Source: Alphaproteobacteria bacterium
GTDB lineage: Bacteria > Pseudomonadota > Alphaproteobacteria > UBA828
NCBI GenBank assembly: GCA_965220745.1
Contig: CBDCQT010000013.1
Location: 640,001-704,000, forward strand
Reading direction: 5' to 3'
DNA: 64,000 nucleotides
Shown here: piece after piece, positions 19,899-58,778 of the stretch
Layout: every line of letters starts with the position of its first letter
Numbering within the stretch: position 1 is the stretch's first letter
Program-made: the position numbers and the translations under genes
Notes under the pieces: generated by a model
Databases searched by the model: none
What the model saw: only the letters and a program-made list of their open reading frames with translations
What the model was told of the DNA's origin: nothing

Positions 19899-20690
19899 AT
19901 GACCGATAGTGCTCAACACCTCCGAAGCGCCGTCATGGCATTCATGGAACGCCGAAAGTTCAGCCCGTCACGAATGGGCAGGCTCCTCTTCGGCAACCCC
20001 TCCTTCGTCCGCGTCCTGATGGACGGCTGCTCCCCCAGGCTCGATACCGCAGACCGTGTGCTCGTGTTCATGGGACTGGAGCCCATCGGTCCGCGCTTCC
20101 GATGCGAGGTCGATGCGTACCTGGCGGTGACCGGCGCCAAGGCCACAGCGGTCGGCGAAGGGGCGATCGGGAACCGCTCTTTCGTGACGCGCCTGCGCAA
20201 TGGCTCCTCGCCCCGCCTCAAGACCGTCGACCGCGTGCGCGCCTGGATGAGGCAGAACGCGAGCGCCGAGGAGTCGCGCATGATCGAAGTGGCTACAAGA
20301 GAGGCGCTGCAGGACGAAGAGGGGGAGGGCGACAAGGCGCAACAGCCCGAACTTGTCGACAGGCCGCAGGCGGCACTGGCGGGTGCTCTCTTTTGGAGCG
20401 TGGTCGAGCTCGCCGAACTCCTGCGCATGAGCCGGCACACCCTGGACCGGTACAGGGTGGTCGGCGGCGGACCGCCGTTTCTCAAGCTGAGAGGACACAT
20501 CATCTATGCCCGGGAGGACGTGAAGAGGTGGTTGAAGACCCGTCGGCGGTCCACGACCTCGGATCTGGGCAAGTTGCTTGCCGACGAGCCGCCCGGCACG
20601 CCGGAAGACGATCTCTCTGGCTCTGCGGAGGGCGCTTCACCCGATTCCGAGGAGGACATCTCCCGTGATACCCGGGAGGACGACCGATGA
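19899..20690 (+). CDS. Regulator with two tandem Cro-like HTH domains and an excisionase-like HTH (start uncertain, 19863 or 19899)
   Basis: Repeats GNPSFVRVLMDGCSPRLDTADRV / GNRSFVTRLRNGSSPRLKTVDRV, then ELAELLRMSRHTLDRYRVVGGGPPFLKL...YAREDVKRWL. Confidence 0.75.
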   Translation: MTDSAQHLRSAVMAFMERRKFSPSRMGRLLFGNPSFVRVLMDGCSPRLDTADRVLVFMGLEPIGPRFRCEVDAYLAVTGAKATAVGEGAIGNRSFVTRLRNGSSPRLKTVDRVRAWMRQNASAEESRMIEVATREALQDEEGEGDKAQQPELVDRPQAALAGALFWSVVELAELLRMSRHTLDRYRVVGGGPPFLKLRGHIIYAREDVKRWLKTRRRSTTSDLGKLLADEPPGTPEDDLSGSAEGASPDSEEDISRDTREDDR

Positions 20691-22282
20691 CCGCGCGGCG
20701 CCGCCGGCTGGTGGCTGGACCATGGCCGCTTCTGGTCCTCCCTGTCCTCCTTCTGTGCGGCTGCGGGCTCACGGCCGTGGAGGACGCGCGGGACGAAGCG
20801 CATGCGGTGGCGCGGGATGCCGCAGCGGCGCGTGCGGGCGCATCGGCCGAGCCCGGCTACGTGACGGTGCGCCGGGTGGACCGGCCCTGGGTGGGGCTGG
20901 TGGTAATTGAAGAAGACAGGAGCACGCTGCCCGAGCGCCTGCTCAGCGAAGACGCGGTGACCCTGCCGCTGGCCGGTGCCGATGACGATGCAGTGCTGGC
21001 GGCGCGCATCGAGGCCGTCACCGGCATCCCCGTGCGCTTCGTCGGCGCCGCCCGTGAGGACGCGGGGACGCCCTTCGCCGCCGCGGACCTGCTGGTGCCG
21101 AACGGCACCGTCTGGACCGGCTCCCTGGACCGTCTGCTGGACGCCTGGACCGGGGCCGCCGGCCACGAGTGGCGGTACGCCGATTCGGGCCGCATCGAGA
21201 TCGTGCGCCGGCTGACGGCAGTGTTCCGGGTCAACGCGCTCGCCGGCACCGAGCGCCACGGCGCCTCGTCGTCGACGCAGGACCAGGCCGGCGAGGACGG
21301 ATCGAGCAGCCTCAGCGCCCAGTCCATCGAGAGCGAGATCGTCTACGACCCCTGGCCCGAGATCGAAGAGCAGATCGCGGGCCTCGTGGGCGAGGAGAGC
21401 ACGGTTACCGTCTCGCCTGCGAGCGCATCGGTGACGGTGAGCGGTGCGCCAGCGGACGTGCGCAAGGTGCGCGGCTATCTCGCCTGGCTCAACCGCGAGG
21501 TGCTGCGTCCGGTGACGCTGAGCGTCCACCTCTACGCAGTGCGCTTCGAGCGCGAGAGCGACCACGGCGTGGATGTCTCGCTCAGCGAGACGCTGGGCTC
21601 GTCCGTCGGCCTTTCGGTGGCGGGCGACACCGTCTCGGTGATCAGGCCCGGCGACACCGGAGGCGCCGTGGGCGCCGTGGACACGCTGGCGGCGGCGGTC
21701 CGGGCGCTCAGCCGGGCGGGCACGGTATCCCGGGTGCTGTCCGCCGACATCCCCTCGCTCAACGGCAAGCCGGCACAGTTCCTGGAACTCACCAACGAGG
21801 CCTATCTCAAGGAGCTCAGGACCACGGCCGGCGAGGGTGTGGCGCAGACCGAGCTGGTGCCGGGCACCGTGTCGTCGGGCTTCGCTCTCTCCTACCTCGC
21901 GCGCATCACCGGGCCGGACGAGGTTCTGGTGCGTCTCAACGCCAGTCTCAGGGACCGCCCGCGCTTCACCACCTTCACCACCGACGGTCACACCATCCAG
22001 CTTCCGGCCTACGGCGGGCGCGCGGTGCAGGTGACCCGGAAGATCGCGCATGGCGAGACCCTGATGGTGACGGGGTTCACCGACCGGGGTGCGGTGTCGG
22101 ACCGGCAGGGCAGCATCGACGTGGACATTCCCGCTCCTCTCGGCGGGCGCAGCGCGCACTTGGTGCGCGAGGAGCGGGTGCTTTTGATCGCGGCCGAGGT
22201 CGGCGCGCCGCTCGGCATCACGCAGGTTCACGGGGTCGAGCTCGGCCGGGGTGAGCCCCGGTATCGGGGAGACTATCCGTGA
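20687..22282 (+). CDS. pilN: Type IVb pilus secretin lipoprotein (PilN/BfpB-like)
   Basis: Lipobox LCGC; LNREVLRPVTLSV, SLNGKPAQF, ELVPGTVSSGF, TIQLP, GETLMVTGF secretin motifs. Confidence 0.85.
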   Translation: MTARRRRLVAGPWPLLVLPVLLLCGCGLTAVEDARDEAHAVARDAAAARAGASAEPGYVTVRRVDRPWVGLVVIEEDRSTLPERLLSEDAVTLPLAGADDDAVLAARIEAVTGIPVRFVGAAREDAGTPFAAADLLVPNGTVWTGSLDRLLDAWTGAAGHEWRYADSGRIEIVRRLTAVFRVNALAGTERHGASSSTQDQAGEDGSSSLSAQSIESEIVYDPWPEIEEQIAGLVGEESTVTVSPASASVTVSGAPADVRKVRGYLAWLNREVLRPVTLSVHLYAVRFERESDHGVDVSLSETLGSSVGLSVAGDTVSVIRPGDTGGAVGAVDTLAAAVRALSRAGTVSRVLSADIPSLNGKPAQFLELTNEAYLKELRTTAGEGVAQTELVPGTVSSGFALSYLARITGPDEVLVRLNASLRDRPRFTTFTTDGHTIQLPAYGGRAVQVTRKIAHGETLMVTGFTDRGAVSDRQGSIDVDIPAPLGGRSAHLVREERVLLIAAEVGAPLGITQVHGVELGRGEPRYRGDYP

Positions 22283-23808
22283 GCGTGCTGACCGTCGGCG
22301 GGCGGCGCTTTGCGGCCGGGCTCTACTGGCTGGAGCGCAAGGGTGCGGCCTCTGTGGCTCGGAACGCGCGGGCCTTCAAGCGTCCCTGGCACGTTCACTG
22401 GGGCGAGCAGACCGGGTACGCGGCGGACGAGGAGAGCCCGAAGGACTGTCCGAGCCTGGCGGCGTCGCTGCAGGCGCGCATCGCGGCCCCCACCTGGATG
22501 GCGCTGGTGGAGGTGGACGACGGGCGCCTTGCGCTGGTGAAGGCCAGGGACGGCGCCTTCCTTGCCGACGGCGACGAGGTGTTTGCCGACCGGGAGGCCG
22601 CGCTTGCGGCCTTCGAGCGTGCCCGCGGCAAGACGGAAAGTTCCACCGTACCCGTGAGTTCCACGGTACCGGAGAGTTCCTCCGTGGGCTGGGCGCTCCA
22701 TGCGACGCCGGGGCTGGTGAAGGACGCGGGAGCGGAGCGTTCCCCCGTAAGCGAGATCGACCCCGCGTCGCTGGCGGACGATCCCGGCATGCGCCTTGCG
22801 GCGGCGCCGCTCTCGACGCTCGGCCTGCCGAAGGTGGGGCGCTTCCTGGCGCTTGCCGTCATGGTGGCGGGCGGCGCCTTCGTGTGGACGCAGCGCGGCA
22901 CGATCTGGGACTTGATCGCCGGACCCGAGGAGGCGGCGGAGGCGGAGCAGGCGCCCGTGGAGCCGCCGGTGACGGCGATACTGGATGCGGGCGCGCTGCT
23001 CGCGGGCTGCCGGCAGGCGCTCATGGCGTATCCGCCGTACCTGCCGGCATGGCGCACGGAGCGCATCTCCTGCGAGGGCCGCTTCGCAGACATCGCGCTC
23101 ATCGGCGTGCGCCCGGAGCTCGAGGACCGGGCGGTGCTCACGGTGCGCTGGCGGCTCGGTTCGGGTCGTCCGGAGCCCCTGCACCGGCGCATCGCCGAGA
23201 CGCACCTCTCCGGATGGTACGCGGCTTCGGTCACGGGGGACCGGGCCTGGGCGGTTGCGCCGCTCGCCCCGGTGCTGCAGCGTTTCGAGGTCGGAGGGGA
23301 ACACCATGGTGCCCCTCCCTCCCTGCTCGACTTCCGCGAGGCGGTGGACCGGCATTTCGGCGCGCGCGGCACCCGCATCGAATACCCCATGCAGGGCGAC
23401 GGCATCGAGTTGCGCGTCACGACCGGTCGCGTGCCCTTTCGCCTCGCAGACGCCATTGCCGCCGTGCCCGGTCTCGAACTCGTGCGGCTCATCCGGGACA
23501 GCGCCGGCGAGTGGCGGCTCGAAGGGCGGCGGGTGTCGCCGGTCTCCATGCCGCGCGAACGCTTCGAGCAGGCGATTCGGCCACTGACTCAGTCAGTGTC
23601 TCAGTCAGTGACTCAGTCACCGGCGCATTCGGTGGCGCAGCCAGTAGCGCAGCCACCGGCAAAGCTGGAAGGCGCGGCCACTGACCTGACCGGCGATGCA
23701 GTCGGCGAAGTCACCGACCCAATCGATGCCGCGGCCACCGGCACGACTGGCAATGCAGCCGGCAGCGCGATCAACCACACGGCCAACGACGGAGGCTCTG
23801 GATCATGA
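22279..23808 (+). CDS. Type IVb pilus assembly protein PilO2-like
   Basis: VGGRRFAAGLYW start, PSLAASL, FLADGDEVF; central TM; follows the secretin. Confidence 0.7.
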   Translation: MSVLTVGGRRFAAGLYWLERKGAASVARNARAFKRPWHVHWGEQTGYAADEESPKDCPSLAASLQARIAAPTWMALVEVDDGRLALVKARDGAFLADGDEVFADREAALAAFERARGKTESSTVPVSSTVPESSSVGWALHATPGLVKDAGAERSPVSEIDPASLADDPGMRLAAAPLSTLGLPKVGRFLALAVMVAGGAFVWTQRGTIWDLIAGPEEAAEAEQAPVEPPVTAILDAGALLAGCRQALMAYPPYLPAWRTERISCEGRFADIALIGVRPELEDRAVLTVRWRLGSGRPEPLHRRIAETHLSGWYAASVTGDRAWAVAPLAPVLQRFEVGGEHHGAPPSLLDFREAVDRHFGARGTRIEYPMQGDGIELRVTTGRVPFRLADAIAAVPGLELVRLIRDSAGEWRLEGRRVSPVSMPRERFEQAIRPLTQSVSQSVTQSPAHSVAQPVAQPPAKLEGAATDLTGDAVGEVTDPIDAAATGTTGNAAGSAINHTANDGGSGS

Positions 23809-25583
23809 GCAAGGGAGCACGCTGCAATCGGCGACATCTGCGTAGACGCATCATGGCGGGTGCGAGCGCGCTCGCGATCAGCGTCGCCATCCACGCAGCG
23901 GCGATAGCGGTGATCACGCCGATGTTGGCGACACCGGCGGCCGCGCAGGAGAGCGAGGAGGTCTACCGCCAGGAGGCGCTGGCCCATGCAAGGGCCATCT
24001 CCGAGGGCTGGCGGCGCCTCGAGGACCACATTCTGCGGCGCTCGACTGCGCCCACGCGCTGGACAGGCTCCGTGCCGCCGGCGTCGACCGGATGGCTGGA
24101 TGCCTGGAACGAGCGGGGAGTAGGGGCGCGCTACTGCGATAACACCCTGCTGGTCTACATGGAGCCCGAGGTCCTCAAGGGCGTGGGTCGCGACCAGCGC
24201 TCGGTGCAGGTGGCGCCCCACCTCTATGCCGCACAGGGGAACACCCTGGTCCAGGGGAACACCCTGGCAGGCGGCCTCGCCGCCCTGCACTGGCTCACGG
24301 GTGCCTCAGGCACATGGGTAGCCGAGGGAACCGCGGGCCGGCCTGATGTGTCCTTGCCGGCATGCCTCTCCGATTCGTCCTTCGGCGGTCCCCTGCCCTT
24401 CGGGCGTGTGGCGCTGGCGGGCGCAGTGCGCGACCCGCACCTCGATCTGCGCGAGCGGATCTCGCACGAGCGCAGCGTGGAGGACTGCCCCGCAGGAACG
24501 CATGGCGAAGGCCGCACCATGACCCGTGAGGTACGGCAGACATACGACGGCAGGGGCGATGCGGTGGGCGATCCCGTCATGGGCTCCTGGCAGGTGTCGA
24601 TCGACGACTGCCGGGCCGACTACAGCGAGTGGGAGCACTACACGCTGGAGTGCAGCTGGCTTGCGGGCCCGCCGCACGACCGGGAGATGACGGGTCAGGA
24701 GATCTGGCGCCGGGAGAAGACGGTAACTGCCGATGGCGTGTCGTGGGGTACGCCGGAGTTCGTCTCGACGAGTTGCTGGGAGGGGCAGGTGCCGGCGCTC
24801 CCGCAGGCCGAGGTGACCGAGACGGTGCGCACCGAGACCACGAGCGGGGCCTGTCCTGCGGGCTACTCGGGCACGGCGGTGCTGACGCGGACGGTGACGA
24901 CGCGGTCCACGACGTGGCCCTGGGACGCCCAGCCCACGGTCCAGGACATCCCCGGCAACTGGATTGCCGACGAGTCGGGGTGCACCCAAGTGGTTCTGCC
25001 TCCCATCCACACGGACGAGTTCACGCCGGGGGGCCCGACGGGTACGGGCACCGGGGGGCCTGGAGACGGCAGTTGCGGGCCAGCACCCGGAGATGGCGGC
25101 GGCTCGGACGGCCCCGGCGACGGCACCTGCTCGGGGCCGGGCGTGGGTCCGGGCGCGGGCAACGGCGGCGGAAACGGCGGCTGCTTCCTCACCGAGGCGG
25201 TGGTGGGCGCGCAGGGCATCGAGGCCGACGACGGCCCGACGCTGACGACGCTGCGCGCCTTCCGCGACCGCTACATGCAAGAGACGCCGGAGCGCCGGGC
25301 GCTGGTGGCCCGCTACTACGAGATCGCACCTCGCATCGTTGCTGCGATCCGGCTGGGGCACGAGGACTGGAACTGGATCGGCACGCAGGTGGACGAGGCG
25401 GTGGCGGCGATCCGCGCCGGTGAGAACGACCATGCCTTCGCCATCTACGTCGCCATGGTGCGCCGCCTGGAGGCGCGCTGGCTCGAGCCGGCGCGGGAGG
25501 CGCCGCAGCAGAGGGTTTCTATGCACCAGGGTGTTCCCCTGCACCAGGGTGTTCCCCTAGACCGGGGTGTTCCCCTGTCATGA
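23805..25583 (+). CDS. Secreted Cys-rich protein with C-terminal CFI-box-CTERM-like domain
   Basis: Signal peptide; CPAG repeats; Gly-rich linker; GGCFLTEAV...LRAFRDRYM...VARYYEIAPRIV. Confidence 0.7.
   Translation: MSKGARCNRRHLRRRIMAGASALAISVAIHAAAIAVITPMLATPAAAQESEEVYRQEALAHARAISEGWRRLEDHILRRSTAPTRWTGSVPPASTGWLDAWNERGVGARYCDNTLLVYMEPEVLKGVGRDQRSVQVAPHLYAAQGNTLVQGNTLAGGLAALHWLTGASGTWVAEGTAGRPDVSLPACLSDSSFGGPLPFGRVALAGAVRDPHLDLRERISHERSVEDCPAGTHGEGRTMTREVRQTYDGRGDAVGDPVMGSWQVSIDDCRADYSEWEHYTLECSWLAGPPHDREMTGQEIWRREKTVTADGVSWGTPEFVSTSCWEGQVPALPQAEVTETVRTETTSGACPAGYSGTAVLTRTVTTRSTTWPWDAQPTVQDIPGNWIADESGCTQVVLPPIHTDEFTPGGPTGTGTGGPGDGSCGPAPGDGGGSDGPGDGTCSGPGVGPGAGNGGGNGGCFLTEAVVGAQGIEADDGPTLTTLRAFRDRYMQETPERRALVARYYEIAPRIVAAIRLGHEDWNWIGTQVDEAVAAIRAGENDHAFAIYVAMVRRLEARWLEPAREAPQQRVSMHQGVPLHQGVPLDRGVPLS
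25524..25577 (-). repeat. 18-bp family A array, 3 units, reverse orientation
   Basis: CACCAGGGTGTTCCCCTG-type units; HQGVPL. Confidence 0.9.
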
Positions 25584-26797
25584 GGGCGCGTCGCACCATG
25601 ATGGGCCTGGCTGCGGCCGCGCTCATGGCGGCGTGCGCGGGAGAGGCAAGTGCACAGTCAGGACCTCCCAACTACAGCTCCCATGATGCGGCGTTCTTCT
25701 CGGAGCTGCTGACCGACCGGGTCTGGCTGCTCGAGCGCCCGAACTCGGCGCAGGCGGGCGACCGGGGTCTGGTCTGGGGCATCCACCATGCGGCCGACGG
25801 CACCGCGCGGGCGTGCATCCACCTCGACGGCGTCTGGCAGGCGCGAATCGACCGCTGGCGGGTGGTCTCGTCGCCCCGCTTCCGGGCCCTCTACAACTAC
25901 CACGACGCCGGCACGGAACCCGATCCCGGCCACGTGAAGGGGCACGTGCCGATCTTCTACGACCCCGGGACGGGCCGGCTCCACAGCGAGAGCGTCGGCG
26001 GAGCCGAAGGCTCGCAGGGCAACTGGTTCGTGCTCTCTCTCGGCTGGGTGCAGGAGAGCTGGCCGCAGGCGCTGAAGGACACTTGTCCCGACCTCGATCT
26101 TCCCGCCGGGTTTTCGGTCAATGCGAAACAGACCTCCGTGCTCATGGAGGAGGCCGTCGCGCAGGATCCCGATGCGGCGCTCCGCACTCATCCGGGCTCG
26201 GAGCTGAGGGCGCCGGGCTCGATTGGGCTGGCGATGACAGGCGGCGGGCCAACGGTGACGGCGGCAGACCTCGCGCGTTTCCTTGCGGCCAACGACGGGC
26301 ACGTGCTCAAGAGCCCGGCGGGAACGCGAATGGTGCTGGTGCTTGGGGCAGAGCGCGACGAGCTGTGGCGGCTGGATGAGCACGGGAACGTAACCGACAC
26401 GGCGGTGCTGCTGCCTTCGGCCGAGGGTGCCGGCATCGCGGCGCAGTGGGAGCGCCTTCCACGCCGTCTGGAGTACCGCCTGGGCGACCCCTTCCCGCTG
26501 CAGCCGACCGGCGAGCGTTATGGGGCGATGGCGCTCACGGACCGCCTGGTCGCCGCGGGCCGGCCCGTCGCGCTGCCGTTCGGAGACATGGGCGACATCC
26601 CGCTGCGCTTCTACGACGGCGGCGCGGCGACGGCGGAAGACGTCCACGGCGGCGAGCTAGGCGGCCGCTGGCGCTGGTCGCGGGGCCATCTCCACGTCTC
26701 GCTCGACGGCATGGCGGAGACGCTGGCCTGGCCCTTGCGCGATCTTGCGCGGCACGTCGGCACGATCCCGGCCTCTTCCGACGGCTCGGCGGAGTGA
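25580..26797 (+). CDS. Hypothetical exported protein
   Basis: Signal peptide; ATGA overlap with upstream gene. Confidence 0.7.
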   Translation: MRARRTMMGLAAAALMAACAGEASAQSGPPNYSSHDAAFFSELLTDRVWLLERPNSAQAGDRGLVWGIHHAADGTARACIHLDGVWQARIDRWRVVSSPRFRALYNYHDAGTEPDPGHVKGHVPIFYDPGTGRLHSESVGGAEGSQGNWFVLSLGWVQESWPQALKDTCPDLDLPAGFSVNAKQTSVLMEEAVAQDPDAALRTHPGSELRAPGSIGLAMTGGGPTVTAADLARFLAANDGHVLKSPAGTRMVLVLGAERDELWRLDEHGNVTDTAVLLPSAEGAGIAAQWERLPRRLEYRLGDPFPLQPTGERYGAMALTDRLVAAGRPVALPFGDMGDIPLRFYDGGAATAEDVHGGELGGRWRWSRGHLHVSLDGMAETLAWPLRDLARHVGTIPASSDGSAE

Positions 26798-26804
26798 ACG
26801 GACG

Positions 26805-30609: not shown

Positions 30610-30623
30610 CGGAGGAAAAGGAC

Positions 30624-32470: not shown

Positions 32471-32472
32471 CC

Positions 32473-33684: not shown

Positions 33685-33697
33685 GAGGGCAAGCGCA

Positions 33698-44015: not shown

Positions 44016-44046
44016 GAGCCGCGCAACAGATTGGGGAACGAGCCCC

Positions 44047-48260: not shown

Positions 48261-48840
48261 CAGGACCCTTCTCCTCGCGGGTGTCCTGGCACTGGCGCTC
48301 TCCCTCTGGCCGGCAGAAGCCTCGGCGGCCGGCGTGGTGGGAGCTGCCGGTGCCGAGTGTGCGCCGGAGGTGGAACGCGCGCTGATCGAGGGTGCACGCA
48401 TGGGCGTCGAACGCGACGTGGCCGTCCTGCGCCATCCCGACCAGGGCATCCGCGACCCGGACTCGATCCTGGATTTCTCCTGCCTCGACGATCTCTTCGA
48501 TTTCCGGCGCTTCGACATCCTCTTCGATCCGGGCAGGAGCATGTCCGACCTGCTTGGCCTTGTGCAGCGGCGCATCTGCGCGGCTGCACGCGAGGCATAC
48601 CGCGGATACGTCGGCCGCCCCCTCAATGCGGCCCTCTACACCGCGCGCATTCCCCGGCTGCCGGGGCTCGGTCCGGTCCACGTGATCGAGAGCGCGGGGC
48701 GCGCCGGGAGCGCCGAGCGGGACCAAGGCATTCCCCTGGACCGGCGCTTCCCGCTGGAACAGGGCGTTCCGCTGGACCACGGCGTTCCCTTGTACCAGGG
48801 AGTTCCCGTGTTTCGTAGCATCGTGGGAGGCGGTCGATGA
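48253..48840 (+). CDS. Hypothetical exported Cys-containing protein
   Basis: Signal peptide; PDSILDFSCLD; overlaps both neighbours. Confidence 0.65.
   Translation: MTSRTLLLAGVLALALSLWPAEASAAGVVGAAGAECAPEVERALIEGARMGVERDVAVLRHPDQGIRDPDSILDFSCLDDLFDFRRFDILFDPGRSMSDLLGLVQRRICAAAREAYRGYVGRPLNAALYTARIPRLPGLGPVHVIESAGRAGSAERDQGIPLDRRFPLEQGVPLDHGVPLYQGVPVFRSIVGGGR
48721..48810 (-). repeat. 18-bp family A array, 5 units, reverse orientation
   Basis: DQGIPL DRRFPL EQGVPL DHGVPL YQGVPV. Confidence 0.9.
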
Positions 48841-50057: not shown

Positions 50058-52333
50058 GCATGCGCCTCCTGCGCTTCCTCTTCGCGCCCGAGCTGGGCCG
50101 CTGCCTGGCCGACATGCGCCAAGCCGCCTGGCGCTTGGGCCAGAATGTGCGCGCACTCTCGGACGGGAGTTGTCCCGTAGCAGGGAGTTCCCATGGACCA
50201 GGGAGCTCCCCTGTACCAGGGCGTTGCCCTGCGGCTGACAGAGACCGGCGCTGGAAGCGTCTCCTGGAGCGGGAGCGGCGCCTGCGCACCGTCCTGGGCG
50301 CCGCTCTTTCCGCCGCCGGCTTCGCCTTCGTGTCCCTCGGCGCTTCCGGCCTGGTTTCCGGCGCCGCCGGCGCCCAGACCATCGACCCGGACATATTCGC
50401 GACTGCGGACAACGCCACCCGCGACCTGTTCTCCTTCCTGAGCGACATGGACGTGGCCCGCCACGCCGTCCTCGGCGACATGCTCTTCGTCTTCAACGGC
50501 GGCGTGCTGGTGCTCGCGGGTTTTTTGCTGCTCTGGCACACCGTGGCTGGAACCGTCGACACCGCCCGCACCGGCCGCTGGGGCTTCGGGGCCTGGGAGA
50601 TCGTGCGCATCGTGGCGGCGGTGGCCCTCATGGCCCCGCTTCCGGGGGGCATGAACGGCGCGCAGCACGCCGTGGTCGGATTGGCCACCCTCGGCGGCGA
50701 CTTCGCGGGCGCGGTGTGGACCCCCTTCTCGGAGCAGGCGCTGGGCCGGGGCGATCCCATTGCGCCACGGCCCAAGGCTGCAGCCTGGCGCTCGGCCATA
50801 TCCCGCGTGCTGCTCGCCGAGACCTGCACGCATGTCGCCAACGCCAACGCGCGCCGTATCGGCGACGACCCCTATATAGAGGCGAACGAAGAGCGCGCGG
50901 ACGGCGCGCTGCTGCTCCGCTACGACGGCGACGGCCGGGGCATGCCCCGCGACCTCTGCGGCGCGGTGCGCTTCGACGGCCTCGACGGCGAGGGATCAAG
51001 AGGGATCGCCGCGCACGGCCATCGCAGGGCGATGGAGGGCCTGTTTCCGGCCATTCGCGGTCTGGCCGTCGAGCTGGGAGACCGCTACCTGCCGGGCTCG
51101 CCCGTGCACGGGCAGCCGCTGCCGGACGTCGAGGCTGCCATGAATGCGCGGGGCCTCGCGCTGTCCTATGAGTCCGTCCTTGACGATGCATTGAGCCGCG
51201 CGGCCTCCGAGGAGCGCCTTGCGCTCGAGCGTGCCGTCGCCGAGGACGCGGCGGGCTCGTCGTGGCTCGCGGCCGCAGGCTTCTTCAACACCATCGCGTC
51301 CCGCACCGGCCTCTTCCAGGCCGCAGCCCACAACGTCCCCGACGCAGCGCTTCCCCTGCCCAGCCTCGAGGAGTGGTCGCCGCCGGCTGCGGCGGCGGTC
51401 AAGGGCCTGCTGGGCGCGCTCGCCTCTTCGCGCACCTGGCAACCCGTGTTCTTCGCCGCAGGCGGCGGGGTCGCGGGGACGCTGCCGGCAGCAGGGGGCG
51501 GCAACGGCAGCCTGGTGGCCGGCCTCTTCGAGTTCATCGACCTCGATGCTGTCGTCATCGCCGACAGCGGCAACCCCATCGCCGACCTCGCGGGTTTTGG
51601 GCACGACCTGATTGCCTCTGCATTGAGCGCCATCGGCGCCATCTCCGGCGTCGCCGTGGGCTCCGGTCTGCTGGAATCCATCCCCTTCTTCGGCAAGGGG
51701 CTCGATGCCTTCGAGTCCGTCTGGCGGGTCACCGACGGCTTCGTTTCCACCATCCTCGGCCTCATGCTGATCGCGGGCGCCGTGCTGGCCTTCGTGCTGC
51801 CTGCGCTGCCTTTCATCCGCTTCCTCTTCGGCGTCTTCGGCTGGCTGGTGAACGTGGTGGAGGCGGTGCTCGCCGTCACCGTGTTCGCCGCCGCCCACGT
51901 CACGCGCGGCCAGGAACGTGGACTTGCGGTGCCGGCGACGCGCCAGGGGTGGCTGTTCCTGCCGGGGCTGATCCTGCGCCCGCCCCTGATGCTGTTCGGC
52001 CTCATCCTCGGCTACTTCGTGTTCCTCGCCGCCATCGGCCTGCTCAACGCCATCTGGCTGCCGCAGCTGCGGGACGCGGGCGCCTCGGACGGTCTCGGGC
52101 CGGTCGGCTTCCTCGCGATGCTCACCCTTTACGTGATGCTCTGCTACGCGCTGATGAACGGCGCCTTCAAGCTGATCGACCTGCTGCCTTCTGCGGTCAT
52201 GGAGTGGATCGGCGGGCGCGCCGGCGGCACCGACGACGGCGCGGGCCGTCTTGCGGGCGCCGTCACCGGCGGCATCGCGCGGGCCGGGAGCGGCCGCCTC
52301 ACGGGCCGGCTGCGCGGCGGAAGCGGCGGATAG
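50054..52333 (+). CDS. dotA: DotA/TraY family polytopic membrane protein
   Basis: TVDTARTG..G, SWLAAAGFF, LAFVLPALPFIRF, ILRPPLMLFG, FKLIDLLPSAVMEWIGG. Confidence 0.9.
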   Translation: MSMRLLRFLFAPELGRCLADMRQAAWRLGQNVRALSDGSCPVAGSSHGPGSSPVPGRCPAADRDRRWKRLLERERRLRTVLGAALSAAGFAFVSLGASGLVSGAAGAQTIDPDIFATADNATRDLFSFLSDMDVARHAVLGDMLFVFNGGVLVLAGFLLLWHTVAGTVDTARTGRWGFGAWEIVRIVAAVALMAPLPGGMNGAQHAVVGLATLGGDFAGAVWTPFSEQALGRGDPIAPRPKAAAWRSAISRVLLAETCTHVANANARRIGDDPYIEANEERADGALLLRYDGDGRGMPRDLCGAVRFDGLDGEGSRGIAAHGHRRAMEGLFPAIRGLAVELGDRYLPGSPVHGQPLPDVEAAMNARGLALSYESVLDDALSRAASEERLALERAVAEDAAGSSWLAAAGFFNTIASRTGLFQAAAHNVPDAALPLPSLEEWSPPAAAAVKGLLGALASSRTWQPVFFAAGGGVAGTLPAAGGGNGSLVAGLFEFIDLDAVVIADSGNPIADLAGFGHDLIASALSAIGAISGVAVGSGLLESIPFFGKGLDAFESVWRVTDGFVSTILGLMLIAGAVLAFVLPALPFIRFLFGVFGWLVNVVEAVLAVTVFAAAHVTRGQERGLAVPATRQGWLFLPGLILRPPLMLFGLILGYFVFLAAIGLLNAIWLPQLRDAGASDGLGPVGFLAMLTLYVMLCYALMNGAFKLIDLLPSAVMEWIGGRAGGTDDGAGRLAGAVTGGIARAGSGRLTGRLRGGSGG

Positions 52334-52707
52334 GTCGATGGGAGGCGATACGCGCCGCATGGCCGAAAGTGCGAGCGGCCTTGCCGCCGCCGCAACGACG
52401 CCGGGGACCGCTGCTGGCGGGCGGCCCCCGGTAGAGGGAGATGCACATGAAGAAGTCTCTAAAGGTGATGGTGACGATCATCGCCGAGCGGACGACGACA
52501 GTCAAGCGGCGGCGGAACTGCAACTGGTATCGGCACCTTCGACCGCGCCCGATGCGAACGTAATGACGGCATCTTGCGGAACCCGGTTGCGACTCACTTG
52601 TGAGGAGGCCCGGCGGGCCGGGCTCAAACGATGCCGGGGGCCGCCCCTGGATGGCACCCCCGGCACGTAACGACACAACTCAGCATGACATCACGAGGAT
52701 AGACACG

Positions 52708-53388
52708 ATGACCGAGCAGGAATCTGCCGTCAAGAGCCGCCGCAGGCGCGCACAAGAGAAGCTCACGCCGCCCCCTCGCTGGCCCGGGGATCCGGAGCAG
52801 GTCGAGGGTGTCGACGTGGACTTCGAGGCCGTCGCCCACGTGCTCGCCAACACCTGCCGTTGGGGCGGCCGCACGCGGCGCTTCTACTCGCTCGCCCAGC
52901 ACGCGCTCACCGCCTCGGAGGAGATCGAGGCGCTGGACGGCGTCGCAGACGAAGACCGCCGCACGCTCGCTCTCCATGCACTCCTCATGACTTCGCGCGC
53001 CGCCTGGCTCGGCGACGCGGAGGGAGAACGCCCCGCATCGGCCCGGGCGTCAGCGCTCGCCAGAACCCACGGCGAGGCCATCGACAGGGCCGTGCGCGAG
53101 GCCGCAGGGCTCGATCCGGAGCCCTGCGAGGAGTGGGCCGAGGTGCTGCGCTTTGTCGACCGCATGACCGATGCCGCAGAGAGGCGCGACCTCGGCGTGG
53201 ACAGCGGCGGCTTCCCCTTCCCGCCGCTGCGCCGCGCCATCCGGCCCCTGGCGCCCGAGGCCGCGGCAGAGCGCTGGCTCGCCCGCTTCAGAGAGCTGGC
53301 AGGCTCTTCCCGCTCCGGCGGCGTCCACGCCGGGAGCGATGCAACCGGTGTCCCGGCGGCTGCCGCCGAGGCGGAGGCCTCACGATGA
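52708..53388 (+). CDS. YfbR-like HD-fold protein with degenerate HD motif
   Basis: VAHVLANTCRWGG...FYSLAQH; ALLMTSRAAWLGD where LLHDAxEAYxGD is expected. Confidence 0.7.
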   Translation: MTEQESAVKSRRRRAQEKLTPPPRWPGDPEQVEGVDVDFEAVAHVLANTCRWGGRTRRFYSLAQHALTASEEIEALDGVADEDRRTLALHALLMTSRAAWLGDAEGERPASARASALARTHGEAIDRAVREAAGLDPEPCEEWAEVLRFVDRMTDAAERRDLGVDSGGFPFPPLRRAIRPLAPEAAAERWLARFRELAGSSRSGGVHAGSDATGVPAAAAEAEASR

Positions 53389-55610
53389 CCGGCGTCGGCG
53401 GGGACACCGGCCGCGGGCTCCGGGTCGCCGCCCGGAGCTTCCGCACATGGCTCAGTCTCGGCATGAAGGTCGCAATGGTCGTGATCGCCGCGGGTCTGGG
53501 CGCCGCAATCCACGAAACCTACGAGAAGACCGCCGAGTACGACCGCTACATCGTGGGTGTCCAGGTCATGTCCGAGATCATGCTCGCCCTGCAGTTCGAT
53601 CCGGACAGGGACAGGACGGTCCTTCGTCCGGACGATACGGAGTATGTCGGCAGCCTGGAAGAGATCGCCACGTTCGAGCCCTACCTCCGCCAGCGTGCCC
53701 GAATGGTGGACCGGGCCGTCGACGCTGCAATTCTCGGCGGCGGTATCGGCGCGGGCCTGGCCGTCGCCGCCCTCTTCGGGCTGCACCTCTTGGGGCGAAG
53801 GCTGGGGCGGGGCCGGCGCCTGCGCGGCGGAGAGCTGGTCAGCCGGAGAAAGCTCGCCTGGCGCACCCTGCCGTGGTGGCGGCGCCTGCCGCTGCCTGGC
53901 CGAGGCCCCGAAGCCTGGCCCTACACTATCGCCCGCATCCCCTGGCCGAAGGGAGCCGAGACCCGGCACACGATCGTCTCGGGAACCACCGGATCGGGCA
54001 AGACCGTGCTCATCGCGGACCTCGTGGAGCAGATCCGGAAGAGGGGAGAACGCTGCATCGTCTACGACAAGATGGGCTCCTATACCGAGACCTTCTTCGA
54101 CGAGCACCGGGACGTTCTCCTCAATCCCCTCGACAGGCGGGCACCCCGCTGGTCCCCCTTCCTCGAGGCCCGCACGGCGCGGGATTTCGACACCATGGCG
54201 GCGGCGCTGATCCCCCGACAGAAGGACGCCGCCGATCCCTTCTGGATCACCGCAGCCCGCCAGCTCTTCTCCCACGGCGCCGCCGTCCTCTGGCAAAGGG
54301 GGGAGACGCGTAACCGGGTGCTGGTGGATCACTTGCTCAAGACCGAGCTCAGCGCGCTCGCCGAGGCCATGGAGGGCACGGTGGCGCAGTCCATCGTCGA
54401 TCCCGCCAACCCGAAGACCGCGCTCTCGGTGCGCGCCATGCTCACCGCCAACATCGGCGCCATGGACCTGCTCCCCGACGAGGGCGATCCCTTCTCCATC
54501 CGCGAGTGGATCGAGCAGGACAGCGGAGGCTTCCTGTTCCTCACCTCGAGGGGCGATCAGCACGCGAGCCTGCGGGGCCTGATCTCGACCTGGCTGGAGA
54601 TTGCCGTCAACGCGCTGCTCTCCCTGCCGCGCAAGGACGCGCAAGGCAACGTCCCGGCACGCCGCACCTGGGTGATCCTGGACGAACTTCCCACCCTGCA
54701 TCAGCTTCCCTCCCTTCGTCCCGGCCTCGCGGAGAGCCGCCAGTTCGGGGGGTGCTTCGTCCTGGGGGTCCAGGTGTTCTCTGCGTTGCGCGACCTCTAC
54801 GGCCGCGACGGGGCAGAGACGATCTCGGGCCTCTGCGGCACGCGCGTGGTCCTGGCGGCGCCGGACAAGGACACCTCGGAGTGGTCTGCCGAGAGCCTGG
54901 GCCGTGTGGAGGTCGAGGCTCTCTCCGAGAGCGTGAGCTACGGGACAGGGGGACGCCCTGGTGCCCCGCACGGCGGCGTGTCCCTGAGCACGCGGCGCGA
55001 CCTGCGCCCGCTGGTGCTGCCGTCGGAGGTGTCGCGGCTGGAGAACCTCTCCGGCTATCTCAAGTTCCCCGGTGCCTGGCCGGTCGCACGGATCGGGCTC
55101 GACTACAGGAAGCGAACCGAAGTGGCCAAGCGCTTCGTGCCGAAGGCGGAGCACGGTGGAAGCAGGCGCTGCAGCACGAAGGAGGAGACGGCCGTCCAGG
55201 GCGCTGCCCCCGTGGCCGATGGCGTAACCGGCAGCGACGCCTATCCTGACCCGAAAGCGCGGCAAACCGACCCAACGTCGACGGTGGAGCGAGCGGTTCC
55301 GGCAACCGCTGCACCGGCCGGCCGGGGAGTCGAGAGGGACGCGTCCGAGGCGGAGATGGCTGTCGGCACCGCCGAAACCATATTCGGTGAGCCGGAGACG
55401 CAGGACGAGGCCGACATCCTGGAGCCGGAGGAATGGGTGCGTGGCGGCGAGGTCCCCGGCGACGCCGGCATCGATGCGCCGAACGAGTCCTGCTGGCGGT
55501 CCGAAGTACTGGCTGCCTCGGCGGGCGCGCGGGACGATCGAGGGGAATCGTCAGGCCAGAAGCGAGGCGAGGGCGAGGCGGACGACGCGAGCGGCCGGTG
55601 GCGGCTGTGA
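53385..55610 (+). CDS. traD: Type IV coupling protein, TraD/TrwB type
   Basis: Two N-terminal TM segments; RLRGGEL; GTTGSGKT; VYDKMG; LNPLDRR; ILDELPTLHQL; acidic tail. Confidence 0.92.
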   Translation: MTGVGGDTGRGLRVAARSFRTWLSLGMKVAMVVIAAGLGAAIHETYEKTAEYDRYIVGVQVMSEIMLALQFDPDRDRTVLRPDDTEYVGSLEEIATFEPYLRQRARMVDRAVDAAILGGGIGAGLAVAALFGLHLLGRRLGRGRRLRGGELVSRRKLAWRTLPWWRRLPLPGRGPEAWPYTIARIPWPKGAETRHTIVSGTTGSGKTVLIADLVEQIRKRGERCIVYDKMGSYTETFFDEHRDVLLNPLDRRAPRWSPFLEARTARDFDTMAAALIPRQKDAADPFWITAARQLFSHGAAVLWQRGETRNRVLVDHLLKTELSALAEAMEGTVAQSIVDPANPKTALSVRAMLTANIGAMDLLPDEGDPFSIREWIEQDSGGFLFLTSRGDQHASLRGLISTWLEIAVNALLSLPRKDAQGNVPARRTWVILDELPTLHQLPSLRPGLAESRQFGGCFVLGVQVFSALRDLYGRDGAETISGLCGTRVVLAAPDKDTSEWSAESLGRVEVEALSESVSYGTGGRPGAPHGGVSLSTRRDLRPLVLPSEVSRLENLSGYLKFPGAWPVARIGLDYRKRTEVAKRFVPKAEHGGSRRCSTKEETAVQGAAPVADGVTGSDAYPDPKARQTDPTSTVERAVPATAAPAGRGVERDASEAEMAVGTAETIFGEPETQDEADILEPEEWVRGGEVPGDAGIDAPNESCWRSEVLAASAGARDDRGESSGQKRGEGEADDASGRWRL

Positions 55611-55712
55611 GAATGATGCGTTCCCCTCGGCCCTTCCGCAGCATGGGCACGTCGGGCGCCGGGTCGACCGGTCGGATTGCCGAAGCGGTGAGCAGCGGGT
55701 GAAACGGGTCCG

Positions 55713-58700
55713 ATGGTCGTCTCGATCGGAGCCATCGCCTCCGCCGCGCAGGGCGTGTCGTATTTCGAGCGGGACGGATACTACACGAAGGGGGATCCCC
55801 AACACCTGAATGCAAGCGCCTGGGTCGGCAAAGGCGCGGATGCGCTCGGGCTACGGGGTCCCGTCGAGCCCGATGTATTCCGGGAGATTCTGGAGGGTAT
55901 CGTGCCTGACGGCTCGGGGCGCCGCCTGGGGCGCCCCGAAAAGGACGGCACCGTCACGCATCGCCCCGGCAGGGACCTCACGTTCTCGGCGCCCAAATCC
56001 GTGTCTCTGGCCGCATTGCTCGGCGGTGATGCGAAGGTCGCAGCGGCCCACGATGCCGCGGTGAGGCGCACGCTCGCCTGGCTGGAGGCGACGACGATCC
56101 AGACCCGCATGAGAGATCCGGAGACCGGAATTCTGGTGCGCGCCGGCGGCCAGAAGATGGTGGCCGCCACCTTTCGTCACGAAGTCTCGCGCAACCTCGA
56201 CCCCCAGCTCCATACCCATGCGGTGATCGCAAACATGGTGCAGGGCGAGGACGGGGGAACACCCCGGTCCGGGGGAACGCCCCGGTCCGGCAAGTGGCGC
56301 ACCATGGCCAATGAACCCCTCTACAGGCGCCAGAAGCCGATCGGCATGGTCTACAGGAACGAGCTCGCGCGGGAGCTGCGGGCGCTCGGCTACGAAGTCG
56401 AGAAGACCCACGCCGACGGGCGTTTCGAGATCGCGGGCGTATCGCGGACCGTCGTCGAGGCCTTTTCTTCCCGCCGCGCGGAGATCGAAGCGGCGATGGC
56501 GGCGCGCGGCCTGGGCGATCCGGGCAGCAATCCGCACCTCGCCGAGCGCGCGGCCCTGATGACGCGCGCCCACAAGCGCGACGTGGACAGGGAGGCGCTT
56601 CAACGGAGCTGGCGCGAGCAAGCGGCGTCGCTGGGCTTCTCGGCAGAGGAGGCGATCAAGGCAGCCCGCAGGCAGCGCTCGATGAGCCCCGACGGCTCGG
56701 GACAGGGGGTTGAGGCGCCCCGCGAGCGGAACGCCGCCGGCAAAGAAGGCGCGACCCCGGGTGCGGCACGCGATGCCGGGCTGGCATCCGAGGCGGTGGC
56801 GTGGGCGACGGAGCACCTCTCCGAGCGCGAGGCAGTGTTCGCTCGCTCCGACCTGCTCGCCGCCGCGCTCGCCTGGAAACCGGGCGCCGTCCCCGTCGAG
56901 GCCGCTGGAACGGCTATCGAAGCGGCGCTCCAGGAGGGCCGGCTGCACGCCGCGCCGGGTTACCGGGGAGCTTCCCTCTCTCCGGGAGACGAGGGCCTGA
57001 CCACGGACATCGCGCTCGCCGACGAGCGCGAGACGATCGGCCTCATGCGCAGCGGCCAGGACAGGGGACGGGTGCTGATGCGCCGGCGAAAGGTACGCCA
57101 GCACCTGCACAAGGGACCGCTCACCGGCGGCCAGAGGCAGGCGGTAACCGCGATTCTCTCATCCAGGGATCGGGTCGTGGGCGTGCAGGGCTTCGCCGGC
57201 ACCGGCAAGACGGCCATGCTGAACCGGGCACGCGCGCTCGCGGAGAAGAGCGGATACCGCATGGTCGGGCTCGCACCCTCCGCCTCTGCCGTGCAGACGC
57301 TCGCGGCCGAGTCCGGCATACAGAGCGAGACCCTGCAGGGCTTCCTCGCGCGCAACGCAGGCGTCGCCGAGGGCAGGCTTGCCCGCAAGGCGGCCCGCAA
57401 GATGCGCGAGGACTTCGCGAAGACCGTTCTGGTGGTGGATGAGGGCTCGCTCGCCTCCACCGTCCAGGCCCGCGACCTGCTCAGGATCGCAGACGCCCTG
57501 CACATTCCCAGGGTCGTGCTGGTTGGCGACGAGAAGCAGCTCGACGCCGTCGACGCCGGCAAGCCCTTCGCCCAGTTGCAGCAGGCAGGCATGCAGACGG
57601 CGGTCATGGACCAGATATTGCGCCAGAGGGAGCCTGCGCTGAAGGAGGCGGTCGAGGCCAGTCTCGCAGGCGACGTCCGCACGGCGTTCGAAAAGCTCGG
57701 ATCCAATGTGGCGCAGGTGAAGGCCGACAACATTGCGGGCGCCGTCGCCGCGCGCTGGCTGAGGCTGTCATCGGAGGAACGTGAAAACACCGGCGTGATG
57801 GCGCCGAGCCACGAGCTCCGCGGCGCCATCAACGGCCACATCCGGGAGCGCCTCGCGAGAGAGGGCGCGATCCACGGCCCCACCTTCCACGGCGAGCAGC
57901 TGGTCTCCCGCGGCTACACGCGGGCGGAGAAGGCGCTCGCCGTCAACTATGCGCCCGGCGACGTGGTGACCTTCCACCGCGCCTACAAGCGAATGGGAAT
58001 CGGCAAGGGCGACGAGCGCCGGGTGGTCGAGGTGGACCGTCGCAGCCGCACGGTGGTGTTGGCGGACGCGAGCGGCGGCACCATCGCCTGGAAGCCCGGC
58101 ATGATCGCGGGTCGTCATGGCGGCAGCGAGGTCTACCGTGCGGAGCCCATTGAGCTGCGCGCGGGCGACCGTATGCGCTGGACCCGCAATGACAAGGGCC
58201 TCGGGCTGGTGAACGGCCGCACTGCCGAAGTGGTCTCGGTGAGCGCCGACCGCGTCTCCTTGCTGCTGGAGGACGGGCGGACGCTCGCGCTCGACAAGGA
58301 TGCCCCGCAGCTGCGCCATCTCGACCACGCCTGGGCTTCGACCGTGCACGCGTTCCAGGGACGCACGGTCGACAGGGTGATTGCCGCGATGGAGGCCAAC
58401 CACCCGCACCTGACGACGCAGAAGAGCTTCTATGTCGAGATCAGCCGGGCGCGCGACCAGGCCGAACTCGTGACGGACGACGTGGTGCGGCTACGGGAGC
58501 GGCTCGAGGCCACGACAGGCGAACGGATCGCTGCGCTGGAAGCGGTTACGCCGAAGAATCGGGACGCAACGGCGAAGGCAGCCGAGGCGACCGGCGAATT
58601 GCCGGCACACACGATGCCCGCGCGCTCGGACGCGGGCGTCAGGCCGCAGGCGGATCGAGGCGCGCCGTTGGACAAACAGACCGAACCGGGTGGCAGGGAA

Positions 58701-58778
58701 CATACTGAAGGCAAACCCGGGCCGAGCGAGCCTGCCCCTCGAAAGCGGATCGAGCTGGAACTGGAGTTGGAACTGTAG
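55713..58778 (+). CDS. MOBF relaxase-helicase (TrwC / F TraI type)
   Basis: YFERDGYY, DLTFSAPKSVS, HEVSRNLDPQLHTH, FSSRR, QGFAGTGKT, VVDEGS, TVHAFQG. Confidence 0.95.
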   Translation: MVVSIGAIASAAQGVSYFERDGYYTKGDPQHLNASAWVGKGADALGLRGPVEPDVFREILEGIVPDGSGRRLGRPEKDGTVTHRPGRDLTFSAPKSVSLAALLGGDAKVAAAHDAAVRRTLAWLEATTIQTRMRDPETGILVRAGGQKMVAATFRHEVSRNLDPQLHTHAVIANMVQGEDGGTPRSGGTPRSGKWRTMANEPLYRRQKPIGMVYRNELARELRALGYEVEKTHADGRFEIAGVSRTVVEAFSSRRAEIEAAMAARGLGDPGSNPHLAERAALMTRAHKRDVDREALQRSWREQAASLGFSAEEAIKAARRQRSMSPDGSGQGVEAPRERNAAGKEGATPGAARDAGLASEAVAWATEHLSEREAVFARSDLLAAALAWKPGAVPVEAAGTAIEAALQEGRLHAAPGYRGASLSPGDEGLTTDIALADERETIGLMRSGQDRGRVLMRRRKVRQHLHKGPLTGGQRQAVTAILSSRDRVVGVQGFAGTGKTAMLNRARALAEKSGYRMVGLAPSASAVQTLAAESGIQSETLQGFLARNAGVAEGRLARKAARKMREDFAKTVLVVDEGSLASTVQARDLLRIADALHIPRVVLVGDEKQLDAVDAGKPFAQLQQAGMQTAVMDQILRQREPALKEAVEASLAGDVRTAFEKLGSNVAQVKADNIAGAVAARWLRLSSEERENTGVMAPSHELRGAINGHIRERLAREGAIHGPTFHGEQLVSRGYTRAEKALAVNYAPGDVVTFHRAYKRMGIGKGDERRVVEVDRRSRTVVLADASGGTIAWKPGMIAGRHGGSEVYRAEPIELRAGDRMRWTRNDKGLGLVNGRTAEVVSVSADRVSLLLEDGRTLALDKDAPQLRHLDHAWASTVHAFQGRTVDRVIAAMEANHPHLTTQKSFYVEISRARDQAELVTDDVVRLRERLEATTGERIAALEAVTPKNRDATAKAAEATGELPAHTMPARSDAGVRPQADRGAPLDKQTEPGGREHTEGKPGPSEPAPRKRIELELELEL
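56252..56287 (+). repeat. 18-bp family A, 2 units, inside the relaxase domain
   Basis: CGGGGGAACACCCCGGTC CGGGGGAACGCCCCGGTC. Confidence 0.9.

Follow-up and report, generated by a model that had tools for sequence, protein, structure and literature searches.

A Dot/Icm-like channel and thin pilus joined to an F-type coupling protein and a MOBF relaxase in a chromosomal alphaproteobacterial element

Within 64,000 nucleotides (nt) of DNA from an uncultured alphaproteobacterium (G000:C13:640001-704000, here called the window; the genome, G000, comprises 4.82 Mb in 13 contigs with a G+C content of 0.66-0.69), we find a chromosomal element in which a type IVb pilus and a mating pair formation (MPF) channel of the I type, related to Dot/Icm and to Tra of plasmid R64, are followed by an F-type TraD coupling protein and a MOBF relaxase, with no DotL, DotM or NikB. 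This hybrid make-up, first proposed from an unaided reading of the sequence (the original prediction), proved to be real. Judged from its sequence, what appears to be new is the combination of MPF class, type IV coupling protein (T4CP) class and mobilisation (MOB) class, together with an origin that can be traced.

Called by codon bias, 32 genes follow one another on the plus strand without a break from 19935 to 58778, all of them open and with coding codon bias (Table 1). Thirty-one of these lie in 20687-58778, between the start of PilN and the stop codon of TrwC, and both the coordinates and the gene list that had been given for this run were right, with family matches throughout (families were named by Pfam, NCBIfam and phmmer with R64 proteins). 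Stop and start codons overlap at 18 of the 31 junctions of the 32-gene run, and G+C is raised to 0.69-0.73 across 20-58 kb of the window. Megablast returned no plasmid match to 35000-58800.

The channel genes are collinear with traH-traY of R64 (IncI1, MPF-I, thin type IVb pilus), sharing the order traH-I-J-K...M-N-O...Q...U...W...Y, and phmmer matched eight of 26 R64 transfer proteins to a counterpart in R64 order. As the rule is stated in PMC3158045, a system counts as MPF-I when it has four or more of the class-specific proteins TraI, K, L, M, N, P, Q, R, W and Y, and the profile set is given in PMC4027160; here Pfam, NCBIfam or phmmer recognised TraI/DotC, TraK/IcmT, TraM/DotI, TraN/DotH, TraQ and TraY/DotA, with TraW a weak match. 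DotO, which is ~35% identical to its nearest plasmid homologues (among them a Roseomonas plasmid DotO, 35.8%), groups with R64 TraU and the Roseomonas DotO in a quick tree of eight rows, apart from R388 VirB4 and two F-type TraC proteins (split 99 by SH-like approximate likelihood ratio test, SH-aLRT). Because DotO falls in the TraU/DotO clade and at least four class-specific proteins are present, the channel belongs to the MPF-I class. An F-type TraB-like N-terminus on DotG was also considered and was rejected, since BLASTP gave no similarity. The single-stranded DNA-binding protein (SSB) encoded after DotO has an acidic, low-complexity tail of ~240 amino acids (aa), rich in Ala, Gly, Asp and Glu and far beyond the usual length of an SSB tail; its origin is ambiguous, with 53-58% identity to SSBs of F-type elements versus 54% to that of a sister I-type element introduced below.

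The pilus genes stand ahead of the channel, and PilN, Q, R, S, V and U of R64 all have family matches in this thin-pilus set. The R64 pil genes lie upstream of tra. Unlike R64, the window element has two PilV-like genes with no shufflon recombinase seen, is chromosomal, and has no counterpart of TrbA (DotM), TrbC (DotL), NikA/NikB (MOBP), Sog or ExcA. Two proteins of the run carry a TcpQ domain, one at the C-terminus of the prepilin-peptidase-like PilU and the other encoded between IcmT and the Dsb-like gene. A 482-nt stretch of the pilus operon (26798-27278) has no confidently called gene; coding bias appears in two overlapping frames (26980-27543 and 27279-27911), and a frameshift or a mis-called small gene may lie behind it.

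The tail of the run is of another kind. TraD scores 435.9 bits against PF10412, and its best plasmid matches are F-type TraDs (33-43% identity) from plasmids typed MOBF/MPF-F. Together with eight relatives (support 97) it joins three F-type TraDs (fork 81 SH-aLRT), apart from the R64/Roseomonas TrbC/DotL pair (99) and the TraG clade (100). The T4CPs of MPF-I systems are described as forming a nearly monophyletic clade (PMC3548315); the window T4CP falls outside this TrbC/DotL clade, both in the quick tree and in giving no match to NF041447. Quick phylogenies of DotO and the T4CP, which had been suggested as a check on the hybrid, thus place DotO in the TraU/DotO group and TraD apart from TrbC/DotL. 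We rejected the idea that the TraD membrane domain was swapped when the channel changed: this domain is 21-27% identical to F-linked TraDs versus 39-60% among I-linked TraDs, but the motor domain falls in proportion (72-74% versus 80-90%), and the divergence is therefore no signal of a swap and reflects ordinary faster drift.

TrwC contains PF08751 (280 bits), PF13604 (AAA_30, 159 bits) and UvrD_C_2, and scores 279.9 bits against NF041492 MobF (cut-off 100) and 253.8 bits against TIGR02686 (cut-off 145.5); its PDB matches are TraI and TrwC. Its relaxase domain is 43% identical to that of R388 TrwC, the histidine motif is kept (HEVSRNLDPQLHTH aligned to HETSRERDPQLHTH), and tyrosines occur in an SY..GYY stretch. 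With an HUH relaxase domain, the histidine motif, N-terminal tyrosines and a helicase fusion, it belongs to the MOBF relaxases.

Searches for the partners that accompany such a channel in R64 and Legionella-type systems came back empty. Profiles for DotL/TrbC (NF041447) and DotM (NF033890) matched none of the 36 open reading frames (ORFs) of the window and nothing in the six-frame translated whole genome (4.8 Mb, 99.96% complete). As positive controls, NF041447 scored 1043 bits on R64 TrbC and NF033890 75 bits on R64 TrbA, and on a Roseomonas plasmid pair they scored 274 bits on the T4CP and 120 bits on its neighbour, respectively; NF033890 rang in no control genome, and its sensitivity rests on the R64 TrbA and Roseomonas scores. 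phmmer with R64 TrbA, TrbB, TrbC, NikA, NikB and Sog found nothing among 32 window proteins at E up to 1, the Pfam profile 'Relaxase' (PF03432, a MOBP-type probe used without a NikB control) had no match in the genome, and whole-library Pfam and NCBIfam scans of the window, with neither a dedicated model nor a positive control for them, named no IcmS/W-like adaptor. Within what profiles can detect, DotL, DotM and a MOBP relaxase are truly missing. The earlier failure to recognise DotL, DotM or Sog in the window was therefore borne out by the two profiles and by R64 Sog, and carrying the hunt for dotL and dotM beyond the window, as had been advised, yielded none in the whole genome.

Where the two halves came from is suggested by a family of alphaproteobacterial MPF-F/MOBF integrative and conjugative elements (ICEs; for instance G008:C1:1.81-1.84 Mb and G202:C3:1.83-1.86 Mb) found in several other families of the class. 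These share with the window element the S24/HTH_17 regulator pair, g30, TraD, TrwC and P4-like integrases, but have an F-type channel (TraL, E, K, B, V, C, W, U, N, F, H, G) and no pil or dot genes. The two that were annotated, in G008 and G202, read S24 repressor (divergent), HTH_17, TraL, E, K, B, V, C, g30, TrbI, S26 peptidase, TraW, U, TrbC, N, F, H, G, SSB, TraD and TrwC, with g30 inside the MPF-F ICE between TraC and TrbI; the S24 gene that heads the G008 element is in the matching divergent position. The HTH_17 protein of the window, whose stop codon overlaps the pilN start, is 41-46% identical over ~210 aa to HTH_17 proteins heading MPF-F ICEs, and, across four MPF-F ICEs, identity to the window proteins is 59-71% for TraD and 65-70% for TrwC. 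Because both the head (S24, HTH_17) and the tail (g30, TraD, TrwC) belong to this MPF-F/MOBF family, the channel is taken to be the incoming part, and the element is probably an F-type ICE backbone in which a pil-plus-dot block, that of the I-type element of this genus, has taken the place of traL-traG, with g30 kept.

Within the genus, g30 is always directly upstream of TraD-TrwC. Its more than 1255 homologues include none with a Pfam domain or a name; an AF2 model (mean predicted local distance difference test score 71) has as its best Foldseek match 2GZ4 (Atu1052; E 1.7e-4, TM ~0.5) and otherwise shows only faint HD-domain echoes. Outside the genus, g30 occurred in eight of 400 genomes sampled across the class; all ten fetched loci lacked a Dot, Pil, TraD or TrwC match within 20 kb, and eight of the ten had an HTH_17 homologue ~6.5 kb from g30. 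The spacer between DotA and g30 (52334-52707) holds two conserved inverted repeats (52401-52431 and 52632-52665), the second of which is kept, with changes on both arms, in a copy of the tail that has no MPF genes, and a small ORF (52448-52567) for a basic protein of ~39 aa, with a good ribosome-binding site upstream and a start conserved among aligned relatives. As the sole sizeable gap of the operon, with two inverted repeats and a small conserved ORF, this spacer is the best candidate for the transfer origin (oriT).

The copy without MPF genes lies ~30 kb to the right (C13:731599-738200; L009 7554-14120, minus strand) and comprises HTH_17, a small ORF, g30, TraD and TrwC, 63-68% identical to the window's genes. 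Its neighbour is an Eco57I-type restriction-modification gene (1359 aa), and the copy probably represents a mobilisable derivative within the same family of ICEs. At least 10 further TrwC-like relaxase genes are spread over contigs C3, C5, C10 and C12 (28-66% identity), which makes the genome unusually MOBF-rich; a TraD-like piece lies close to just one of these genes, a fragment on C5.

The same layout recurs in congeners. Scanning GTDB species genomes gave eight loci in Alphaproteobacteria/Rhodospirillales metagenome-assembled genomes (MAGs), and g30-TraD-TrwC is present in all seven that extend past DotA. Across the order (49 genomes), DotA homologues were found in 14 of 20 congeners, often several per genome, versus 0 of 28 genomes from 13 other genera. 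From 35 listed DotA matches, 20 near-full-length ones were fetched in listed order, a set that overlaps the MAG loci; where DotA is at least 73% identical, g30-TraD-TrwC follows (11/11 loci), and where it is 60-66% identical, a TraG/VirD4-like T4CP is found (9/9 loci). None of the 20 fetched loci matched TrbC, TrbA/DotM or NikB queries. The cross-genome synteny search proposed earlier therefore shows the layout kept in every one of the 11 related loci. Between loci, MPF genes are 90-98% identical versus 63-73% for TraD and 63-80% for TrwC, a disparity that, by sequence, would fit either repeated exchange or fast divergence of the tail; eight other genomes have channel genes at 90-98% identity, often with multiple copies in a single genome.

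The second version of the I-type element, exemplified by G041:C2:1.12-1.16 Mb and by contig C1 of G000, has the same pil and dot order (43-79% identity) and an SSB after DotO as in the window, and it likewise lacks DotL and DotM; TrbC and DotM queries had no match in the G041 element. It differs in having a TraG/VirD4-like T4CP after the dot genes and, on the opposite strand, a 1340-aa TrwC-family relaxase of only 28% identity, and the S24 repressor, integrase, g30 and TraD had no match in a 60-kb view of the G041 element. On contig C1 (L007 8376-20000, minus strand), this second system comprises a DotO fragment at the contig end with TraW-like and DotA genes. Next come genes for a TraG/VirD4-like T4CP, a 408-aa protein of unknown kind, a ribonucleotide reductase of class II and an SSB; the 20.8-kb contig shows no relaxase.

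How might such an apparatus work? Once S24 repression is lost, the HTH_17 protein would activate a single long operon whose genes are translationally coupled, and the integrase (13963-15117) would excise the element. TrwC would then nick oriT, most likely in the DotA-g30 spacer, and stay on the 5' end, while TraD, anchored by its own transmembrane domain, would pass the relaxase-DNA complex to an I-type channel powered by DotO and DotB without DotL-DotM, and the PilN-V thin pilus would hold mating pairs together. That TraD serves the I-type channel is the step we infer here; we put forward only tentatively, at a little under an even chance, the idea that a Dot/Icm-like channel without DotL-DotM is natively served by an F-type TraD and a MOBF relaxosome, which drive DNA through it.

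Several observations count against the proposed two-lineage element and its working. TraD scores 421.4 bits against TIGR02759 (TraD_Ftype), below the equivalog cut-off of 521.35, and the T4CP tree is a quick one of 18 rows with long branches and an unfinished thorough search, in which the F-type TraD fork reaches only 81 SH-aLRT. TrwC is interrupted at L061, three other loci have 2-4 kb of extra DNA between DotA and TraD, and the near-full-length DotA matches G042:C7, G034:C192 and G045:C5 were left out of the fetched set. The tail can live apart, as g30-TraD-TrwC exists without a channel at C13:731.6-737.4 kb. Two insertion sequence (IS) elements separate the integrase from the regulators, a right junction and attachment (att) sites were not found by synteny or direct-repeat searches, and in four congeners the DNA after the left flank matches the end of contig C2 (~9.7-10.9 kb), not C13. 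The DotA-g30 oriT is a candidate only, and DNA transfer, excision and protein contacts are predictions set beside the observed gene content, absences, layout conservation and chimeric ancestry.

Three other accounts of the region deserve weighing. The region could be two neighbours, namely a protein-secreting type IVB system for host association next to a separate mobilisable g30-TraD-TrwC unit moved by other channels. The free-standing triad at C13:731.6-737.4 kb, the more than 10 TrwC-like genes of the genome, the related sequence in runs labelled sponge metagenome and the 375-nt spacer that parts DotA from g30 would all suit that arrangement, but we consider it quite improbable: the adjacency is kept in 11 of 11 loci, the operon-head regulators come from the same ICE family as the tail, the profile finds no DotM, and IcmS/W-like adaptors went unnamed in library scans run without a positive control. 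The cluster also contains no other T4CP, and the sister clade has its TraG-like T4CP at the same place; to our knowledge, known type IVB systems have a T4CP. Nor does decay seem likely, whereby the region would be a relic unable to move, its parts having ceased to function as a unit. The 32 genes are all open with coding codon bias and the repeat insertions described below are in frame, although these arrays do interrupt DotO and the TrwC relaxase domain, and the two IS elements, the 482-nt stretch without a called gene (26798-27278) and the lack of att repeats or a tRNA target in our searches are what a relic might be expected to show. Since the genes are open and the MPF genes 90-98% identical across genomes, with channel genes in multiple copies in eight others, we favour recent spread of the element.

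The remaining account concerns direction. Here the original prediction was right about the hybrid, but a history in which an I-type element borrowed TraD and the relaxase is not favoured, as the transfer region resembles the F-type ICE family at its head and at its tail alike. In such a reverse swap, an R64-like I-type element would have lost TrbA, TrbC and NikB and gained TraD, TrwC and, piecemeal, its regulators from F-type elements. The I-type block does make up most of the element's length, and the sister I-type element, already without DotL/DotM and with a foreign T4CP, shows that T4CP replacement occurs in this channel lineage. Replacement of the channel nonetheless accounts better for a head (S24, HTH_17) and a tail (g30, TraD, TrwC) that both match the F-type family and for g30, which is an internal gene of the F-type MPF operon in those ICEs, and one exchange of the central block makes a simpler history than repeated captures at head and tail; the reverse order of events is unlikely.

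Set against known systems, the window element has homologues of DotA, B, C, D, G, H, I, O and IcmT of the Dot/Icm type IVB secretion system, and it differs in lacking DotL and DotM matches and in carrying a relaxase, on which grounds it is predicted to move DNA and not effectors. The Dot/Icm coupling complex is described as DotL-DotM-DotN-IcmSW (PMC12857230). ICEs of the PAPI-1/pKLC102 type likewise join an R64-like thin pilus to a conjugation system (PMC3548315), but they are set apart, as described, by an MPF-G channel and a MOBH relaxase (PMC3158045). Three possible precedents were considered and rejected as canonical by their descriptions: the pPPUT-Tik1-1 plasmids (MOBP13 with TrbC), the single Ralstonia I-type cluster j (MOBP1) and the Xanthomonas Icm/Dot system, which has DotL. 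MPF-I ICEs are called 'extremely rare' in the published surveys, with none delimited there (PMC5587801; PMC3158045). In the literature as far as it was covered, no MPF-I channel with a TraD/MOBF tail is described, though supplementary tables of large surveys may list such loci; with the same proviso, no published description of this combination stands in the way of the suggestion that this is a little-described ICE class.

Docking of a T4CP to a type IV channel is known, in the account of PMC12857230, only through one VirB10 contact in R388, and pathogens' type IV A and B systems have been reported to deliver DNA led by TrwC (PMC5572225). If the proposed mechanism is true, T4CP-channel docking is far more portable than the near one-to-one pairing of T4CP and MPF-I suggests, and a living ICE lineage could trade its mating channel as a whole. 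Many chromosomal I-type elements occur in this one genus; they come in two versions, neither using DotL/DotM, and the same backbone (regulators, g30, TraD, TrwC) has an F-type channel elsewhere and an I-type channel here, a clean natural experiment that provides matched pairs for asking which parts of TraD and the channel decide compatibility. MOB/MPF typing of metagenomic elements can miss hybrids of this sort.

Table 1. Annotated features of the window, with positions counted from its first nucleotide (TM, transmembrane)
Feature	Position	Strand	Basis and remarks
Tyrosine integrase, P4-like, Arm-DNA-binding domain	13963..15117	+	PF00589 70.5 bits, PF13356 48.4 bits
DDE_Tnp_1 transposase (insertion sequence)	15524-16891	+	PF01609
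IS110-type transposase (insertion sequence)	17317-18366	+	PF02371, PF01548
S24 (LexA/CI-like) repressor	18779..19522	-	PF00717 61.4 bits; divergent from transfer operon
HTH_17 protein, 251 aa, candidate activator or excision factor	19935..20690	+	PF12728 30.7 bits
Type IVb thin-pilus module	20687..35468	+	Profile matches; collinear with sister element in G041 at 43-73% aa identity
PilN	20687-22282	+	TIGR02520 164.8 bits
PilO-like	22279-23808	+	Weak match
Three unknown proteins	23853-25583, 25580-26797, 27279-27911	+	
PilQ ATPase	27908-29563	+	PF00437 136.5 bits
PilR	29560-30609	+	Weak ComGB-like match
PilS	30624-31271	+	PF08805 54.9 bits
Two PilV-like genes	31313-32470, 32464-33684	+	PF04917 30.4, 21.1 bits
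Unknown protein	33698-34132	+	
PilU peptidase with TcpQ domain	34119-35468	+	Weak Peptidase_A24; TcpQ 52.4 bits
MPF-I (Dot/Icm, R64 Tra-like) channel module	35510..52333	+	Profiles and R64 phmmer
DotD/TraH	35510-36178	+	PF16816 83 bits
DotC/TraI	36175-37041	+	PF16932 184 bits
DotB/TraJ	37038-38243	+	TIGR02524 229 bits
IcmT/TraK	38259-38540	+	NF038220 58 bits, above cut-off
TcpQ-domain protein	38537-39247	+	
DsbG-like	39268-40197	+	
DotI/TraM	40166-40834	+	PF11393 136 bits
DotH/TraN	40846-41910	+	PF12293 150 bits
DotG/TraO	41907-43064	+	~44 bits
TraQ	43051-43584	+	44.7 bits
Two-TM protein	43659-44015	+	
DotO/TraU	44047-47184	+	phmmer to R64 TraU 273 bits, E 5e-84
SSB	47178-48260	+	
Unknown protein	48244-48840	+	
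TraW-like	48837-50057	+	Weak
DotA/TraY	50054-52333	+	TIGR04346 210 bits, above cut-off
Largest non-coding gap of operon, 375 nt	52334..52707	+	Candidate oriT and/or promoter (predicted function)
g30, 226 aa, all-helical, cytoplasmic, no named family	52708..53388	+	Atu1052-like fold (model)
TraD, F-type T4CP, 741 aa, two N-terminal TM-like segments	53385..55610	+	
TrwC/TraI-type MOBF relaxase-helicase, 1021 aa	55713..58778	+	
Twelve period-18 tandem arrays	22639..56290	.	Starts 22639, 25522, 27227, 31685, 35002, 36009, 36980, 43612, 45397, 48720, 50165, 56252

Twelve tandem arrays of an 18-nt unit are scattered through the operon. The unit is a short hairpin (e.g. CCGGGG-AACG-CCCCGG, with a second type CACCCC-TTC-GGGTG), and arrays lie in frame inside genes or at gene ends, usually at protein ends or gene junctions. 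The same stretch of DNA is translated in no fewer than five combinations of frame and orientation (for example QGVPLx, PGSSPV, SSTVPV, GDHPGP, NGGTPR). The DotO array is an insertion of 36-37 aa that is missing from two close and two distant homologues; that of TrwC is a 12-aa insertion relative to R388 TrwC, found at about the same residue in the MPF-less TrwC copy; and close relatives differ in the number of copies at the DotA N-terminus, which ranges between 2 and 5. By a strict pattern, tandem arrays elsewhere in the 4.8 Mb occur only at C13:704281 and, in the second TrwC copy, C13:734018, and none was found in the nine TraG-type loci or on C1. Because the unit is read in several frames and orientations, varies in copy number and is restricted to the lineage, the arrays are best regarded as putative DNA- or RNA-level elements of the ICE lineage, not protein motifs. 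They resemble palindromic repeats that invade coding sequence, and might represent either a novel type of intragenic palindromic repeat or a device that the element uses in regulation. The repeats that the original prediction reported are thus real, and its statement that both modules carry them holds narrowly: 11 of the 12 arrays are in pil/dot genes, one, of two units, is in TrwC, and TraD and g30 have none. The long co-residence of the modules that it drew from them does not follow, given arrayless TraD and g30, an array also in the MPF-less TrwC copy, and the unequal identities of channel, TraD and TrwC reported above.

At the left, synteny with at least 16 congeners ends at ~12696, the chromosomal junction, and the same base is where a contig from a run labelled sponge metagenome parts from the window; a contig of such a run also covers 19075-20871, across the HTH_17/pilN junction. 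The P4-like integrase is the probable left-end integrase of the island. The attributes expected of an ICE that were observed comprise this integrase, a full transfer apparatus (relaxase, T4CP, VirB4-like ATPase and MPF) and the left chromosomal junction. Comparing the left junction with 58.7-75 kb and with the whole genome for att repeats returned only a 19-22-nt motif with ~10 genomic copies and no flanking pair, and the only tRNA that scanning picked up, over the window plus four 20-kb stretches flanking it, was a tRNA-Pro 11 kb to the window's left. Because the far flank of the four congeners maps to the C2 end, the right end is placed past a point at the island where the assembly breaks or the DNA is rearranged.

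Downstream of TrwC lie an IS1595 fragment, a zeta-like kinase, a SLOG/YAcAr protein, a DUF7146-Toprim protein and then two tandem integrases, which begin another element. The kinase (zeta-toxin-like/AAA_33) and the YAcAr (SLOG) protein occupy 59555-62790 on the minus strand, and a YAcAr protein also follows the T4CP in the TraG-type element L072. Tandem pairs of P4-like integrases were seen at L008 2044-4488 (G000:C13:706044-708488), where they start the next island, and at L094 2339-4749, where they head an F-type ICE in another bacterial family.

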